Below, piece after piece: positions 3,848 to 25,226 of a stretch of 64,000 nt of DNA. The notes under the pieces are model-generated. The model ran no database searches. It was not told the origin of the DNA and was given only the letters and a program-made list of their open reading frames with translations. How positions within the stretch are numbered: the stretch's first letter is position 1; every line of letters starts with the position of its first letter. The position numbers and the translations under genes are program-made. Source of the DNA: Escherichia coli (GTDB lineage Bacteria > Pseudomonadota > Gammaproteobacteria > Enterobacterales > Enterobacteriaceae); the NCBI RefSeq assembly GCF_003018255.1, contig NZ_CP027440.1, one strand, 5' to 3'.

Positions 3848-3946
3848 GCCTGATGCGCTATGCTTATCAGGCCTACGCAGTACCTGCAATATATTGAATC
3901 TGCAGGACTTTGTAGGCCGGATAAGGCGTTAACGCCGCATCAGGCA
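3848..3946. repeat. BIME: two oppositely oriented REP elements between convergent ybiT and ybiU
   Basis: GCCTGATGCGCTATGCTTATCAGGCCTAC and GTAGGCCGGATAAGGCGTTAACGCCGCATCAGGCA match the E. coli REP consensus in inverted orientation. Confidence 0.8.
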
Positions 3947-4027
3947 TTAACAAAGCGCATTTGTCAGCAATCTGAGTAACGTTGAATCGATTTTCTTAAT
4001 CCCACATCAATTCACTTCCATTAACTC

Positions 4028-5287
4028 TCAAACATCCATGCCCAGTGCGCGCTTACCGTGAATGTTCAGATCCTCCAGCGTAAAGCGGCCTTCCCAGTTT
4101 GCTTCATAATCTTCCCGCGGGAAGTCGCCAGGTGATGCGCCTTTTTCCAGCGCCATTTTGACTTTGTGTGCATAAGCCCGATTTTTCTCGCACATTGGCG
4201 CAGCAGGGATATACATCACGTTGCCCCAACCCTGTTGATTGTCTACTGGCGCGACGGAGTGAATCACATCGCAGTGCCACCAGACGGAATCCCCTGCTGT
4301 TATCGCGGGAATGGAAGTCAGCGCTTTAAGCAGTAGTGGATGCCATTTCTCTGAAATGGGCAGAACTTTGCCAGGTGCAACCCCGCACAGTTCATCGTCC
4401 GGTACGTCATCCAGCAGCGGGCGCAATAAAACATACGCCATCGCTTCCGGGATAGGCACCACATGTAACAATCCCTGACCCGATAACATATCAGAGAGCG
4501 CCGTCCAGCCCTGAAACGTGCGGAACACCGAACATTTTGTAGTGTTATCTACCGTGTACTCTTCGACATCGGTCCGGTGTGCAGCATCCCAGGGATCGTA
4601 ATCATCGAAATTACCATTAAACACATTGGCAAAAACGCGCTGATAAGCGGGTAATAACCACCGTTCCAGCGCACCAGAATCGGTATGCGCGCCCAGGCCT
4701 TTAGATGTAGTACCTGGAGGGCGGCGGCGGATCCTGTCTGGATAAATCACACTGATATCAGGATTAAACCACTGTTTGCCGTTGCTTTCAGACTTCCACA
4801 GTCGGTTTAGAAAAGATTGCACAGCAGCCATGTTTTCGCTCTGCCGCGCCTGCATCTGTGCTTGCGACCAGTAAATGGGATAGATTTCGGGACGAGAAGC
4901 CTCCAGCGAGCCGAAAAAACTGTCGCCAGGGCCTTTATAAACATCATCAAAATGATTGATATCAAGATAATCGAGCATGGCACGATCCCACGCCATCGCC
5001 TGCTCGCGAGGGAAATGGCCTTTTATGACTGCACAACCGCGACGTTTAATTTCATTGCGAGTGGCATCGCTTACTGTACCTGCGGCAATATCACTATAAG
5101 AAACTTCCGGCCAAACCGGCAGCCCTTGCGCTTTTAGGGCATCGATTTCAGCAACACGCGTTTCGATTTTTGCAGAGAGTGTATCGAAAACCTGTTGCAC
5201 ATCACTGAGCTGTTCCCGCAGCGCAGCTTTCATCTCTCGGATAGCTGCTTTCGCATCTGTGGGCAGCGTCTCACAGGAAAAAGTCAT
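4028..5287 (-). CDS. ybiU: Conserved protein of unknown function (DUF1479 family)
   Basis: 419-aa ORF whose size and position match K-12 YbiU; no recognisable catalytic motif by eye. Confidence 0.8.
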   Translation of the reverse strand: MTFSCETLPTDAKAAIREMKAALREQLSDVQQVFDTLSAKIETRVAEIDALKAQGLPVWPEVSYSDIAAGTVSDATRNEIKRRGCAVIKGHFPREQAMAWDRAMLDYLDINHFDDVYKGPGDSFFGSLEASRPEIYPIYWSQAQMQARQSENMAAVQSFLNRLWKSESNGKQWFNPDISVIYPDRIRRRPPGTTSKGLGAHTDSGALERWLLPAYQRVFANVFNGNFDDYDPWDAAHRTDVEEYTVDNTTKCSVFRTFQGWTALSDMLSGQGLLHVVPIPEAMAYVLLRPLLDDVPDDELCGVAPGKVLPISEKWHPLLLKALTSIPAITAGDSVWWHCDVIHSVAPVDNQQGWGNVMYIPAAPMCEKNRAYAHKVKMALEKGASPGDFPREDYEANWEGRFTLEDLNIHGKRALGMDV

Positions 5288-19215: not shown

Positions 19216-21564
19216 ATGCTGAGTTTATACGAAAAGATAAAGATAAGGCTGATAATTTTATTTTTATTGGCAGCACTGTCATTTATTGGTCTTTTTTTCA
19301 TCATTAACTATCAACTGGTATCGGAACGCGCGGTAAAACGTGCCGATAGCCGCTTTGAACTTATTCAGAAAAACGTTGGCTATTTCTTTAAAGATATTGA
19401 ACGTTCGGCCCTGACATTAAAGGACTCACTATATTTATTAAAAAATACAGAGGAGATTCAACGCGCCGTAATTCTGAAAATGGAAATGATGCCATTTTTA
19501 GACTCGGTGGGACTGGTACTTGATGATAATAAATATTATCTCTTTTCGCGGAGGGCGAATGATAAAATCGTTGTTTATCATCAGGAACAAGTAAATGGAC
19601 CGCTTGTCGACGAGTCAGGGCGGGTTATTTTTGCCGATTTTAACCCATCGAAACGACCGTGGTCGATGGCTTCAGATGACTCTAACAACAGCTGGAATCC
19701 GGCATACAATTGCTTTGATCGTCCGGGTAAAAAATGTATCTCTTTTACGCTACGCATCAACGGCAAAGATCACGATTTGTTAGTGGTGGATAAAATTCAT
19801 GTCGATTTAAACTGGCGATATCTGAACGAGTATCTTGATCACATCAGCGCTAATGATGAAGTTCTATTTTTAAAGCAAGGTCATGAGATCATTGCCAAGA
19901 ATCAACTCGCGCGTGAAAAATTGATTATTTATAATAGCGAAGGTAATTATAATATTATTGATTCTGTCGATACGGAATATATTGAAAAAACATCAGCGGT
20001 GCCAAACAACGCATTATTCGAAATCTATTTTTATTATCCTGGTGGTAATTTATTGAACGCATCAGATAAACTTTTTTATCTGCCGTTTGCGTTCATTATT
20101 ATCGTATTGTTGGTGGTTTATTTAATGACCACTCGTGTGTTCCGTCGGCAATTTTCTGAAATGACCGAGCTGGTTAATACGCTGGCGTTTTTGCCCGACT
20201 CAACGGATCAGATCGAGGCTCTGAAAATTCGCGAAGGCGATGCGAAAGAGATTATCAGCATCAAAAATTCGATCGCGGAAATGAAAGATGCCGAAATTGA
20301 ACGGTCAAATAAATTGCTCTCACTGATCTCTTACGATCAGGAAAGCGGTTTTATTAAAAATATGGCGATTATTGAATCCAACAATAATCAGTATCTGGCT
20401 GTGGGGATCATCAAACTGTGTGGTCTGGAAGCTGTGGAAGCGGTGTTTGGTGTTGATGAACGCAATAAAATCGTCAGGAAATTGTGTCAGCGAATTGCCG
20501 AGAAATATGCGCAATGCTGCGATATCGTGACATTTAATGCCGATCTCTATTTACTCCTGTGCCGGGAAAATGTACAGACGTTTACCCGTAAGATAGCGAC
20601 GGTAAACGATTTTGACAGCAGTTTTGGCTACCGCAATCTGCGCATCCATAAGTCTGCTATTTGTGAACCTTTGCAGGGGGAAAACGCCTGGAGTTACGCA
20701 GAAAAGCTGAAACTGGCGATTTCCAGTATCCGCAACCATATGTTCTCAGAGTTTATTTTCTGTGATGATGCGAAACTCAACGAAATAGAAGAGAATATCT
20801 GGATTGCGCGTAATATTCGCCATGCAATGGAAATTGGCGAACTATTCCTCGTCTATCAACCGATCGTTGATATTAACACCCGCGCCATTCTGGGCGCGGA
20901 GGCGTTGTGCCGTTGGGTGTCTGCGGAGCGGGGGATCATTTCACCGCTGAAGTTCATTACCATTGCTGAAGATATCGGGTTTATCAATGAGCTGGGCTAT
21001 CAAATTATTAAAACCGCGATGGGTGAATTCAGACATTTTAGTCAGCGTGCGTCGCTGAAGGATGATTTCTTACTGCATATTAATGTTTCGCCCTGGCAGT
21101 TAAACGAACCACACTTTCATGAGCGTTTTACTACCATCATGAAAGAAAATGGCCTGAAGGCGAACAGCCTTTGTGTTGAGATCACTGAAACCGTGATTGA
21201 GCGAATTAATGAACATTTTTATCTCAATATTGAACAACTGCGTAAACAAGGGGTACGGATATCGATTGATGACTTTGGCACCGGTTTGTCAAACCTGAAA
21301 CGTTTTTATGAAATTAATCCAGACAGCATAAAGGTGGACTCGCAGTTTACCGGCAATATTTTTGGTACTGCGGGAAAAATTGTGCGCATTATTTTCGATC
21401 TGGCACGCTATAACCGGATCCCGGTGATTGCGGAAGGCGTAGAGAGCGAAGACGTTGCGCGCGAATTAATCAAATTAGGATGTGTTCAGGCTCAGGGGTA
21501 TCTGTACCAGAAACCCATGCCATTCTCCGCCTGGGATAAAAGTGGAAAATTAGTAAAAGAGTAG
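19216..21564 (+). CDS. pdeI: Membrane c-di-GMP phosphodiesterase (EAL domain)
   Basis: 782-aa ORF; N-terminal TM segment and periplasmic domain; C-terminal EAL motif (AEALCRW); AT-rich. Confidence 0.85.
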
Positions 21565-21571
21565 TTTACGT

Positions 21572-22900
21572 ATGTCCAGAATCAATAAGTTCGTACTTAC
21601 AGTCAGTCTGCTGATTTTTATCATGATTTCAGCAGTTGCCTGCGGGATCTACACTCAAATGGTAAAGGAACGGGTGTATAGCCTGAAACAGTCCGTTATT
21701 GATACTGCTTTTGCGGTGGCAAATATTGCTGAATATCGGCGTAGCGTGGCAATTGATCTTATCAACACGCTAAATCCCACGGAGGAACAGCTGTTGGTTG
21801 GCTTACGCACAGCTTACGCCGACTCGGTTTCACCCTCTTATTTGTACGATGTCGGTCCTTATCTGATTTCCAGTGACGAATGTATTCAGGTAAAGGAGTT
21901 CGAGAAAAATTATTGTGCAGATATTATGCAGGTTGTGAAGTATCGACATGTCAAAAATACAGGGTTTATCTCTTTTGATGGTAAAACCTTCGTCTATTAC
22001 CTCTATCCGGTAACTCACAATCGTAGTCTGATATTTTTGCTTGGTCTGGAACGTTTTTCTTTACTGTCAAAATCGCTGGCGATGGATAGCGAGAACCTGA
22101 TGTTCTCCCTGTTCAAGAACGGTAAATCGGTGACCGGTGATGAATATAACGCTAAAAACGCCATCTTCACTGTTTCGGAAGCGATGGAGCACTTCGCCTA
22201 TTTGCCGACCGGGTTGTACGTATTTGCTTATAAAAAAGACGTTTATTTTCAGGTATGTACATTGATTATTTTCTTTGCCGCATTGGTGGCAGTGATATCG
22301 GGTGCCAGTTGCCTCTATCTGGTACGCAGAGTGATTAATCGTGGTATTGTGGAGAAAGAAGCCATTATTAATAACCATTTTGAACGCGTACTGGATGGCG
22401 GGCTTTTCTTTTCGGCTGCCGATGTCAAAAAACTCTACAGTATGTATAACTCGGCATTCCTGGACGATCTGACCAAAGCGATGGGCAGAAAATCCTTTGA
22501 CGAAGATTTAAAAGCGCTGCCGGAAAAAGGCGGTTATTTGTGCCTGTTTGACGTCGATAAATTCAAAAACATTAACGACACCTTCGGTCATTTGCTGGGC
22601 GATGAAGTGTTGATGAAAGTGGTGAAAATCCTTAAATCACAGCTCCCCGTAGATAAAGGTAAAGTCTACCGCTTCGGCGGTGACGAATTTGCGGTGATTT
22701 ATACGGGTGGAACGCTGGAAGAGTTGCTATCGATTCTAAAAGAAATTGTTCATTTCCAGGTGGGAAGCATTAATTTAAGCACCAGTATCGGTGTAGCGCA
22801 TTCAAATGAATGTACTACCGTCGAACGCTTGAAAATGCTGGCGGATGAGCGACTGTATAAGAGTAAGAAAAACGGCAGGGCGCAGATTAGCTGGCAGTAG
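21572..22900 (+). CDS. dgcI: Membrane diguanylate cyclase (GGDEF domain)
   Basis: 442-aa ORF; GGDEF motif (RFGGDEF) near the C-terminus; 7-nt gap after pdeI. Confidence 0.85.
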
Positions 22901-22913
22901 AATTAGAATAGTG

Positions 22914-22941
22914 TTAGTACCCCTTAATCAAGGGGTACTAA
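22914..22941. repeat. 28-bp perfect stem-loop at the dgcI-distal edge of the two-gene cassette
   Basis: TTAGTACCCCTT-aatc-AAGGGGTACTAA: 12-bp perfect arms, 4-nt loop, no U-tract on either strand. Confidence 0.7.
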
Positions 22942-22969
22942 TGAATGTGGTAAATCATTTGCAAACATT

Positions 22970-23299
22970 TTACTTTGCAAAAACTTCCGGCCCTTTTATT
23001 GCCAATGTATTCAAAATACGTAATGCCGGGCCGCTCGGTTTTATTTCATTACGTTCCCATTTCGAGACACTTTCTTTTGACATTCCCATTGTATGTGCCA
23101 GCACGGATTGTGACATGCCGTATCGGGTGCGGATGGCTTTGATCTCTTCACCCGTCATTGATTTGACTTTGGCTATACGGGCGCTGACTTCACGAGCTTT
23201 GACCATGACGGCAATGGCATCAACTTCACTATCAGACATCAGGCCCAGTGCATTCAGTTCCTTTGCATCTTCCAGCATCATTTGTAATTTATCGCTCAT
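22970..23299 (-). CDS. HTH (XRE/MqsA-C-terminal-like) DNA-binding protein; candidate antitoxin and autorepressor
   Basis: 109-aa ORF; C-terminal HTH region (YGMSQSVLAHTMGMSKESVSKWERNEIKPSGPALRILNTLA); GAGGTG Shine-Dalgarno; ATG overlaps the upstream ORF's stop by 11 nt. Confidence 0.7.
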   Translation of the reverse strand: MSDKLQMMLEDAKELNALGLMSDSEVDAIAVMVKAREVSARIAKVKSMTGEEIKAIRTRYGMSQSVLAHTMGMSKESVSKWERNEIKPSGPALRILNTLAIKGPEVFAK

Positions 23300-23675
23300 T
23301 TTTCACCTCAATCAAAAAGCCAGTTTCGATCAAATCCTCTATTTGCTTATTGCTAAAGGCCAGAAATGCATTTGCCATTTTTTTGTAGGCCGCCAGTTCA
23401 TCATCTTCGATTTCTTTGGTTCCTTTACTGCTTAGACCACTCTTGGACCAACCATCATAAAAAAACACATGATTTGCTGATTTAAAAAAGATAATTGTTC
23501 TGGCTCCACCACTCTTTCCTTGTTGGAGGGGTAAACGTTTTTTGATGACACCGCTACCTAAATCAGCCTCCCATATGCCCTGAATCACTTCTTCAGCGGC
23601 AGCCATGAGAACTTTATCGTGAATACCAAGTTTTTTCGTGCTTTGGCTGAATCGTCTTGCCTTATACACACCCAT
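23289..23675 (-). CDS. RelE/ParE-superfamily-like toxin candidate (DUF1044/COG4737-type, GKSGGxR motif)
   Basis: 128-aa ORF; AGGA Shine-Dalgarno 7 nt upstream of the ATG; conserved DLGSGVIKKR...GKSGGARTIIFF core typical of this toxin family; AT-rich relative to flanking core genes. Confidence 0.65.
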   Translation of the reverse strand: MGVYKARRFSQSTKKLGIHDKVLMAAAEEVIQGIWEADLGSGVIKKRLPLQQGKSGGARTIIFFKSANHVFFYDGWSKSGLSSKGTKEIEDDELAAYKKMANAFLAFSNKQIEDLIETGFLIEVKNER

Positions 23676-23690
23676 ACATCCATCCTTGTG

Positions 23691-23727
23691 GTAATGTTTA
23701 CTATAGTAACCATTACGCTTATTTCAA
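23691..23727 (-). promoter_or_regulatory. Sigma70-like promoter (-35 TTGAAA, 16-nt spacer, -10 TATAGT) overlapped by a 26-bp palindromic operator
   Basis: Minus-strand read TTGAAA-N16-TATAGT; palindrome GTAATGTTTACTATAGTAACCATTAC (23691-23716) contains the -10 and sits about 15 nt upstream of the toxin ATG. Confidence 0.6.
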
Positions 23728-23900
23728 GTAATTGCGATCAAAACTTTAATTTGGTGTGAAAAAGTGAGAGTTGCCTCGAGTACGATTCATTTTTCTCGAT
23801 TTATGCGTCAGGGGATTTTGTGCGTAAGGGTAGGACATCGGGAAGGGTAGCAGAGGCAGATCGAAGAACAATATCCTTGTTAGATCTGCCTTAAGATTAA

Positions 23901-25226
23901 TTAAACCCGGCTACCCCACAAATCGTACTCATCGGCGTGCTCGACTTTCACACGCAGGATATCACCCGGCTTAACGTTGGTTTCACCATTGAGATAAACC
24001 GCGCCGTCGATTTCCGGTGCATCTGCCATGCTGCGACCAATCGCACCTTCTTCGTCCACTTCGTCGATAATCACCAGAATTTCACGGCCCACTTTCTCTT
24101 GCAGGCGCTCGGCGGAAATCTGCTGCTGCAACTGCATGAAACGGTTCCAGCGTTCTTCTTTCACTTCTTCCGGAACCTGGTCAGGCAGGGCATTGGCGTC
24201 TGCACCTTCAACCGGGCTGTATTTAAAGCAGCCAACGCGATCCAGACGTGCTTCTTTCAGGAAGTCGAGTAGCATCTGGAAATCTTCTTCCGTCTCGCCA
24301 GGGAAGCCGACAATAAAGGTTGAGCGTAGGGTCAGTTCCGGGCAGATTTCGCGCCACTGTTTGATGCGCGCGAGTTGGCGATCTACAGAACCCGGACGCT
24401 TCATCAGTTTGAGAATGCGCGGGCTGGCGTGCTGCAACGGAATGTCCAGATAGGGCAGGATTTTGCCTTCTGCCATCAGTGGGATGACGTCGTCCACATG
24501 CGGATAAGGGTAAACGTAGTGCAGACGTGTCCAGATCCCCAGTTTCGATAACTGTTCGCACAGGCTGACCATGCTGGTTTTTACCGGCTCGCCGTTGTGG
24601 AAGCCAGTACGATGTTTAACATCGACGCCATAGGCGGAAGTATCCTGCGAGATCACCAGAATCTCTTTAACGCCCGCATCAACCAGACGTTTCGCTTCAC
24701 TTAACACTTCGCCAATCGGACGGCTCACTAGGTCGCCGCGCATAGACGGAATAATGCAGAAGGTGCAGCGGTGATTACAGCCTTCAGAAATTTTCAGATA
24801 GGCATAATGACGCGGCGTCAGTTTCACACCTTGTTCTGGCACCAGGCTCAGGAATGGGTTGTGTTTCGGTTTTGGCACGTAGTGATGAACGTGCTCCAGA
24901 ACCTGCTCATAGCTATGAGGCCCGGTGATTTCCAGCACTTTCGGGTGGACTTCGCGGATCTGATCTTCTTTTGCCCCCAGACAACCGGTCACAATTACCT
25001 TGCCGTTTTCATTCAACGCTTCACCAATGGCTTCCAGTGATTCTTGTACCGCGCTGTCAATAAAGCCGCAGGTGTTGACGATCACCATGTCCGCATCGTC
25101 ATAGCTCGGTACCACGTCATAACCTTCAGTGCGTAGTTCGGTGAGAATACGCTCTGAATCGACAAGGTTTTTCGGGCAGCCAAGGGAAACAAAGCCGATT
25201 TTCGGCTGGGGAGTTACTTTGCTCAT
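23901..25226 (-). CDS. rimO: Ribosomal protein S12 methylthiotransferase (radical SAM)
   Basis: 441-aa ORF; N-terminal MTTase domain; radical-SAM motif CNHRCTFC; C-terminal TRAM domain. Confidence 0.9.

Follow-up and report, generated by a model that had tools for sequence, protein, structure and literature searches.

Setting of the toxin-antitoxin cassette

The window (the whole 64,000-nucleotide stretch of Escherichia coli contig NZ_CP027440.1 analysed here) carries two overlapping minus-strand genes between dgcI (plus strand, ending at 22900) and rimO (minus strand, ending at 23901), encoding proteins of 128 and 109 amino acids that we assign to a toxin and an antitoxin, respectively (Table 1). 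In an alignment to E. coli K-12, homology ends at the dgcI stop codon and restarts around 23893–23896, and examination of the flanks by alignment revealed no direct repeats and no mobility genes. The cassette occurs in 1128 of 5426 complete E. coli genomes (~21%), O157:H7 EDL933 among them, with 95–100% identity in all but two of the matching records. The same two coding sequences (toxin WP_001562827.1, antitoxin WP_001280945.1), overlapping by the same 11 nt, are annotated by RefSeq (PGAP) in genomes identical or nearly identical to this one, EDL933 included. A literature search by protein accessions and by guessed O157 locus tags returned nothing useful on this E. coli module. The HigBA-2/PF06296 family is known, and this E. 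coli member of it is uncharacterised.

Table 1. Features of the toxin-antitoxin cassette and its immediate surroundings (positions in the window)
Feature	Position	Strand	Evidence or remarks
Toxin-antitoxin cassette, ~1 kb	22901..23892		Takes the place of the 46 nt between dgcI and rimO in E. coli K-12; whole operon inside
-35-like hexamer TTGAAA	23722..23727	-	Promoter scan
Palindrome GTAATGGTTACTA/TAGTAAACATTAC, 26 bp	23691..23716		Centred on the -10 hexamer; candidate operator, putatively bound by the HTH antitoxin
-10-like hexamer TATAGT	23700..23705	-	Promoter scan; TATAGT/TATAAT kept at this position in homologous loci
Toxin Shine-Dalgarno AAGGA	23683..23687	-	7 nt 5' of the toxin ATG
Toxin gene, 128 aa, PF06296 'RelE'/HigB-2 family	23289..23675	-	Pfam match, homolog profile, fold
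Antitoxin Shine-Dalgarno GAGGTG	23304..23309	-	Toxin codons Glu123-Val124; 4-nt spacer AAAA to the ATG
Overlap ATGAGCGATAA, 11 nt	23289..23299	-	Antitoxin ATG (23299-23297) through toxin TAA (23291-23289)
Antitoxin gene, 109 aa, HTH	22970..23299	-	HTH_3 domain, HigA-2 sequence match, fold
Hairpin, perfect 12-bp stem, 4-nt loop	22914..22941		Between the convergent antitoxin and dgcI genes

Family assignment of the toxin

The 128-aa protein matches the entire Pfam profile PF06296 (positions 1–120 of 120) at 111.9 bits (cut-off 27; E 2.9e-32), and NCBIfam offers no model for it. Used as a single-sequence query against PDB sequences the toxin gave no match at all, so that its link to HigB-2 surfaced only through a homolog profile and a fold search. 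A profile built from 23 toxin homologs matches HigB-2 chains (E 1e-4) via a core G-x-x-K-x-R...GK-x-GG-x-R motif. All six best Foldseek matches in the PDB to the AF2 model (pLDDT 86) are HigB2 chains, the best being 5jaa_D (E 3.2e-4, probability 1.00, TM 0.48/0.57), with lower-ranked matches to the RelE/ParE-superfamily toxins BrnT and ParE. The active site of HigB2 comprises K49, R51, R64, Y82 and K84 (PMC10098735). In the profile alignment four of these correspond to identical toxin residues, K45, R47, R59 and K78 (for K84), that are invariant in the 23 homologs, and the fifth, Y82, corresponds to the nearly invariant W76, a Tyr-to-Trp change that appears conservative. We infer that the 128-aa protein is toxic by cleaving mRNA. 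PADLOC returned no match for the toxin and only generic HTH matches for the antitoxin, and hence no evidence for a catalogued defence system.

Among the closest known systems is V. cholerae HigB-2/HigA-2 (higBA-2; PDB 5JAA, 8A0X), which shares with the E. coli module a PF06296 toxin, the toxin-first gene order, the toxin core motif and four of five active-site residues. Gerdes (2025) named this family PF_RelE, included V. cholerae HigB-2 in it and gave the gene order as toxin/antitoxin (PMC11980606). The two toxins are nevertheless distant, with just 14–16% identity in the fold alignment, and the E. coli protein is longer than the 110-aa HigB-2 by two extra C-terminal helices and an L-x-E-V end.

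The antitoxin and its start codon

An HTH_3 domain spans residues 53–94 of the 109-aa protein (E 1.9e-9), and phmmer matches it to HigA-2 (E 5.7e-4). The AF2 model (pLDDT 90) superposes its C-terminal domain on that of HigA2 (5j9i) with TM 0.82–0.84 and an rmsd of 1.1 Å, the next fold match being MqsA. V. cholerae HigA-2 combines an N-terminal toxin-binding part with a C-terminal XRE HTH domain; the antitoxin here has a conserved N-terminus, a candidate toxin-binding and neutralising region by analogy with HigBA-2-type operons. It is modelled here as two helices, in contrast to the disordered region of V. cholerae HigA-2.

More specific names for the antitoxin were considered and rejected. For MqsA, TIGR03830 scores 47.1 bits, below its cut-off of 61.8, with only the C-terminal HTH part aligning. 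The resemblance of that part to MqsA is also seen in Foldseek (3gn5/3fmy), and E. coli MqsR/MqsA is likewise toxin-first; however, the N-terminal zinc-binding domain of MqsA (CxxC...CxxC) is excluded in a protein with no cysteine, and MqsR belongs to Pfam PF15723 rather than PF06296. The model NF007481 (listed as 'HTH-type transcriptional regulator'; NF007481/PRK10072 is presumably the YiaG model) scores 26.7 against a cut-off of 110, NadS (NF041265) 36.7 bits against 60, and DicA and HipB also fall below their NCBIfam cut-offs.

In Enterobacterales homologs an N-terminal M-S/T-x-K-L/M motif aligns from residue 1, and Lys4 (AAA) is kept in most of them, whereas many have Leu or some other residue at position 7. 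The N-terminus is thus conserved from Met1 and M7 is not, which confirms the annotated start. A start upstream is also excluded, since a TGA in the antitoxin frame at 23305-23303, two codons 5' of the ATG, leaves no earlier start possible. The sole other candidates are M7 and M8 (ATGATG, 23281-23276), two in-frame ATGs that lie 7 and 10 nt past the toxin stop, from which translation would begin with no overlap at all. SD scoring found no Shine-Dalgarno sequence before either, residues 1–6 are conserved, and an upstream start with an SD is present in all loci compared, and we therefore regard a misannotated start as highly improbable.

Anatomy of the gene junction

The original prediction described an 11-nt overlap between the toxin stop and the antitoxin start, with the antitoxin ATG inside the last toxin codons, and GAGGTG just upstream. 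Direct reading of the sequence bears out each of these elements and their coordinates, and both ORF lengths agree with the ORF list. The toxin frame ends in ATT GAG GTG AAA AAT GAG CGA TAA and the antitoxin frame begins ATG AGC GAT AAA TTA, such that the toxin stop arises from antitoxin codons 3–4 (GAT AAA). The observation is confirmed, and the junction is non-random. Overlap as such is an ordinary and already tabulated trait of this gene family: Table S1 of Gerdes (2025) lists -14 for V. cholerae higBA-2, -17, -8 and -4 for others and -8 for an E. coli paralog (PMC11980606).

The two genes of the window have similar start signals. Both begin with ATG, and the SD duplexes are of similar strength (-6.9 kcal/mol for the antitoxin, -7.6 kcal/mol for the toxin); differential initiation therefore gives no obvious antitoxin excess here.

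Predicted promoter, operator and transcript end

The TTGAAA and TATAGT hexamers, separated by 16 nt, match the consensus at 10 of 12 positions and form the only promoter-like site found 5' of or inside the toxin gene, the sole other match of the scan lying inside the antitoxin ORF, downstream of the antitoxin start. Toxin-first mqsRA and rnlAB use internal promoters (as cited in PMC10098735), and by the same arrangement the antitoxin could be expressed mainly from a separate promoter within the toxin gene, making the overlap irrelevant to its expression. The scan is a crude consensus match that a weak internal promoter could escape. However, no site at 9/12 or better occurs in the toxin ORF, the internal promoters predicted in the homologous Coxiella toxP are inactive (PMC10098735), and A. 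baumannii higBA2, compared here as a toxin-first module, likewise has no active one. We accordingly give an internal promoter little probability, and favour a single promoter serving both genes.

The palindrome centred on the -10 hexamer has gap-free 13-nt arms that are 92% complementary, and is present as a single copy in the window (0 matches expected by chance). The same motif occurs at -41 to -16 relative to the toxin start in Enterobacterales homologs, including those of Kluyvera, Siccibacter, Pantoea, Enterobacter, Proteus, Providencia, Photorhabdus and Xenorhabdus. The operator that HigA2 protects in V. cholerae extends from after the -35 across the -10 (PMC11006873), at the corresponding place and with a different sequence (TGTACGC-N5-GCGTACA vs GTAATGGTTACTA/TAGTAAACATTAC here). 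A conserved palindrome on the -10, combined with the position of the HigA2 operator, makes autoregulation by the antitoxin a reasonable inference.

The hairpin that separates the antitoxin gene from the convergent dgcI is a 100% complementary inverted repeat and probably marks the transcript end; it was missed by the terminator scan because it has no T-run. A second palindrome just past the antitoxin stop (22950–22973) is unconserved in homologs and was treated as chance.

Conservation of the junction in homologous loci

One genome per species was searched and 40 loci were retrieved, in 39 of which the toxin is followed directly by an antitoxin homolog. The 36 intact pairs among these, together with the window, make up the 37 pairs compared here. 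All 37, at toxin identities down to ~33%, have an SD-preceded antitoxin start within the toxin ORF, and this start is ATG in 35. Overlap length is far more variable: 1 nt (one locus), 4 nt (one), 8 nt (11), 11 nt (12), 17 nt (four), 29 nt (four), 47 nt (one, ambiguous), 50 nt (two) and 65 nt (one). Lengths of 8 and 11 nt are thus the two modal values and the exact 11 nt is unconserved; short overlaps of 1–11 nt are found in 25 loci, overlaps of 17–65 nt in 12, and a gap between stop and start in none.

What is kept is the ribosome binding site. Among the 35 loci with a contiguous toxin alignment, the antitoxin GAGG is built by conserved toxin Glu codons of the L-x-E-V/I end in 32, namely by the aligned Glu codon in 25 and by the preceding Glu in seven ("E-E-I" cases), and in the remaining aligned loci the SD is formed a few codons downstream. 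In 25 of 34 cases the aligned Glu codon reads GAG, compared with 203 of 534 (38%) among the remaining Glu codons of these genes (Fisher p 8.6e-5), a statistic that, like the other SD statistics given here, counts related loci as independent. Past the conserved Glu-Val the toxin tail varies among homologs in both length and sequence. The conserved feature is therefore the position of the antitoxin RBS on the last conserved toxin codons, and overlap length is set by the distance to the next stop in the toxin frame. A programmed frameshift on the A-run (GTGAAAAATG) producing a toxin-antitoxin fusion was considered and rejected, as the A-run is unconserved in homologs.

Start signals across the family differ between the two genes. 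The toxin start is GTG in 15 of 33 homologs and the antitoxin start ATG in 32 of 33, and the antitoxin SD pairs slightly better than the toxin SD (-7.5 vs -6.5 kcal/mol; Wilcoxon p 0.012, related loci again being counted as independent), which hints at differential initiation.

Translational coupling and stoichiometry

The original prediction held that the overlap enforces co-translation and fixed stoichiometry and so supports the view of the two ORFs as a functional pair. There is good support, drawn largely from beyond the overlap itself, for the ORFs forming such a pair: a PF06296 toxin, a HigA-2-like antitoxin, adjacency in 39 of 40 loci, and a single promoter-like site with a conserved candidate operator. 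The mechanistic part of the claim fared differently, and enforced co-translation with a fixed stoichiometry is not supported. The antitoxin has a conserved, well-spaced and accessible SD of its own, the overlap drifts from 1 to 65 nt in homologs, and strict reinitiation in a toxin-first operon would put the antitoxin at or below the level of the toxin.

Coupling through RNA structure was assessed on a 121-nt junction RNA, which folds no better than its shuffles (z -0.55). The antitoxin RBS has an unpaired probability of 0.58 against a segment mean of 0.48 (family means 0.50 and 0.47). The RBS is therefore not sequestered, which leaves coupling by RNA unfolding without support, and initiation there by free ribosomes should be possible.

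Overlapping gene pairs coupled by termination and reinitiation (Huber et al. 2019/2023) resemble the junction in being co-directional, with the stop after the start, an SD in the upstream gene and, by analogy, complex-forming products. The commonest E. coli overlaps are -4, -1 and -8, with -8 less efficient than the shorter ones, and only distances of -8 to +10 nt are taken as predictive of reinitiation (Huber et al. 2023; PMC10666635). At -11 nt the junction exceeds these common classes and falls just outside the reinitiation range. Reporter coupling drops steeply from -4 and is nil at -25 nt (Brown & Wade 2025, review; PMC12548453). Partial reinitiation may occur at the 11-nt overlap; it would not be expected in the homologs with overlaps of 29–65 nt, though these keep the same SD and start.

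Two readings of the overlap lie at opposite ends of this evidence. In the first, coupling is obligatory and the two proteins are produced in constant proportion. The stop/start overlap, the presence of both genes on one predicted transcript, the enrichment of heteromeric-complex subunits among overlapping pairs (PMC10666635) and the defined tetramer formed by HigB2-HigA2 (PDB 8a0x) all point in this direction. However, the antitoxin has a strong, accessible SD of its own, the overlap length is unconserved, -11 nt lies beyond the predictive window with longer overlaps coupling less, and an antitoxin supply limited to that of the toxin is a consequence that authors working on relatives have themselves seen as a problem. 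More specifically, Wachter et al. (2022) made the toxin-first coupling problem explicit and concluded that "some other mechanism" balances the proteins (PMC10098735), and Armalytė et al. (2018) raised the same concern for toxin-first A. baumannii higBA2. We regard obligatory coupling as improbable, and the overlap alone does not lock toxin and antitoxin in a fixed ratio. The steady-state ratio of toxin to antitoxin depends also on protein turnover.

In the second reading the overlap is neutral: the antitoxin is made only by independent SD-directed initiation, and the 11 nt are a by-product of drift in the toxin frame with no meaningful reinitiation. Overlaps of 17–65 nt in about a third of the loci (12/37), the nil reporter coupling at -25 nt (PMC12548453), the variable toxin tail beyond Glu-Val, and an accessible antitoxin SD kept by codon choice are all consistent with this. 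It sits less easily with the excess of short overlaps (25/37) and the complete lack of loci with a gap. Furthermore, gene pairs for subunits of heteromeric complexes are enriched in short overlaps, and in E. coli such overlaps support reinitiation (PMC10666635). A ribosome stopping 8 nt past an SD-preceded ATG is well positioned to reinitiate. We consider a neutral overlap less likely than not.

We posit that the junction belongs to a type II toxin-antitoxin operon of the HigBA-2 type, with the toxin gene first, an explanation we consider probable. A single sigma-70 promoter (-35 at 23727-23722, -10 at 23705-23700) would give rise to a bicistronic mRNA, and the antitoxin HTH dimer, alone or with the toxin, presumably binds the 26-bp palindrome and represses the operon. 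The toxin would be translated from its own AAGGA and ATG, and the antitoxin RBS is built into toxin Glu123-Val124 (GAGGTG). With the RBS in the last conserved toxin codons, the antitoxin ATG consequently falls inside the unconserved C-terminal tail of the toxin, and the toxin frame continues to a chance stop, in antitoxin codons 3–4 and after 11 nt here, and after 1–65 nt in relatives. SD-directed initiation on the shared mRNA probably accounts for most of the antitoxin made, and ribosomes terminating 8 nt past the antitoxin ATG may add a partial reinitiation boost. Such an arrangement would tie the antitoxin to the toxin transcript and leave the protein ratio unfixed.

Comparison with related modules

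V. cholerae higBA-2, distant though its toxin is in sequence, has overlapping genes like the E. coli module, and its operator lies over the -10, as does the candidate operator here. The closest experimentally tested relative found is ToxP/AntitoxP of Coxiella burnetii plasmid QpH1 (CBUA0028/CBUA0027), at 35% and 33% identity. Its toxin ends in LIEV, with GAGGTG as the SD, and the genes also overlap at stop and start, by 4 or 1 nt (GTGA or TGATG) in contrast to 11. In this system AntitoxP binds the promoter as well as ToxP, translation is blocked by ToxP, and toxP has no active internal promoter (PMC10098735). Unlike the cassette described here, ToxP/AntitoxP is plasmid-borne and essential for plasmid maintenance, and it is annotated with a 30-aa N-terminal extension.

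The relE-yiaG modules of Gerdes (2025), for example in E. coli VREC0535 (SQP90372.1/SQP90371.1), also combine a PF06296 toxin with a following HTH antitoxin that has two N-terminal helices; a -8 nt overlap is listed for them, and a HigB2-like fold was noted in the same work. Their toxin, which ends in QFTEVPNE, is a different paralog by visual sequence comparison. The window's antitoxin falls below the PRK10072 model (26.7 vs 110 bits), and the window's toxin has no N-terminal extension. The mqsRA module differs in expression as well, as mqsA has internal promoters (PMC10098735).

Implications for toxin-first modules

For the window itself the importance of the junction is small, given that RefSeq already annotates the genes, descriptions exist of the family and of its toxin-first order, and overlaps are tabulated. 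The one point of mild interest left is that conserved toxin codons carry the antitoxin SD throughout the family. This bears on a question that two experimental papers, on the Coxiella module and on A. baumannii higBA2, treat as unsolved, namely how toxin-first modules avoid an excess of toxin. The antitoxin SD within toxin codons, together with the overlapping start, could supply the mechanism, so far missing, by which toxin-first HigBA-2-type modules hold antitoxin no lower than toxin, a proposal we advance tentatively and hold rather unlikely to be correct. If true, each ribosome translating the toxin would pass to the antitoxin start, with free ribosomes adding more, and the weak GTG toxin starts of many family members would tilt the balance further towards the antitoxin. 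We thus put forward the SD in toxin Glu-Val codons, in combination with the overlapping start, as a testable translational hypothesis for how modules of this family may avoid toxin excess.

Distribution and possible decay of the cassette in E. coli

The toxin–antitoxin (TA) cassette is a presence/absence polymorphism in E. coli, being carried by 1128 of 5426 complete genomes, O157:H7 EDL933 among them. It wholly replaces the terminator spacer that separates dgcI and rimO in K-12, and no repeats or mobility genes were found flanking it. Several E. coli genomes have a shortened toxin ORF (73–108 aa) or a partly deleted cassette, which suggests that the toxin gene decays now and then while the locus itself is kept. 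The gene pdeI is an intact 782-aa ORF in the window, whereas the annotation of strain JNE23-011, the cassette of which is 100% identical to that of the window, marks this gene as a pseudogene with a frameshift. A 1198 bp contig binned as the actinobacterial MAG 'Collinsella sp.' (L003, JAIJJM010000872.1) has 99–100% protein identity to the E. coli cassette and most likely represents E. coli DNA placed in the wrong bin.

Coordinates and identifiers of features of the cassette and of related records
Feature	Record	Position	Remark
TA cassette	window	22901-23892	
K-12 dgcI-rimO terminator spacer	L002	2665-2710	
pdeI, intact	window	19216-21564	
pdeI, annotated pseudogene	L001 (JNE23-011)	3887-4101	
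26-bp palindrome	window	23691-23716	GTAAT-nn-TTACTATAGTAA-nn-ATTAC; centre is the -10 box
Second palindrome	window	22950-22973	GTAAATCATTTGCA/TGCAAACATTTTAC; spans the antitoxin stop codon and runs just beyond
Promoter/operator-encoded toxin extension	L014	about 1953-2003	
ToxP N-terminal extension, as annotated	L044	26086-26175	Coxiella CBUA0028
Phage toxin homolog	PV340552.1 (Escherichia phage PhiR12_3)	4340-4657	37% identity
Shortened toxin or partly deleted cassette	proteins P0013, P0025, P0034, P0039, P0052; hit H40 (strain BS-01)		

Candidate operator and toxin start codons

A 26-bp palindrome over the -10 box of the predicted operon promoter is likely to be the antitoxin operator, and is kept about -41 to -16 relative to the toxin start in Enterobacterales homologs (L004–L027) whose genomic contexts are unrelated to one another. 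The second palindrome is probably due to chance, because it lacks conservation in the homologous loci.

Some PF06296 toxins are recorded with 'extended, disordered N-termini', including database entries of 144–179 aa (P0037, P0038, P0043), the 151-aa annotation of Coxiella ToxP, and another example in Gerdes 2025 (PMC11980606, Fig. 4). These extensions come from reading the promoter/operator DNA as coding sequence, that of the Providencia toxin, MALATIVIGTTWRVVV, being the translation of ...gctactatagtaa..., and for this reason they probably represent misannotated start codons rather than true domains. Among homologous loci L007–L036 the toxin starts with GTG in 15 of 33 cases and the antitoxin with ATG in 32 of 33; the family may thus tend towards weaker toxin initiation, a pattern absent from the window itself.

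Homologs on mobile elements

Homologs of the toxin occur in 204 plasmid records, among them plasmids from Coxiella, Piscirickettsia, Sinorhizobium, Providencia and Moellerella; one E. coli phage carries a homolog too. This occurrence on both plasmids and a phage is consistent with a mobile TA family.
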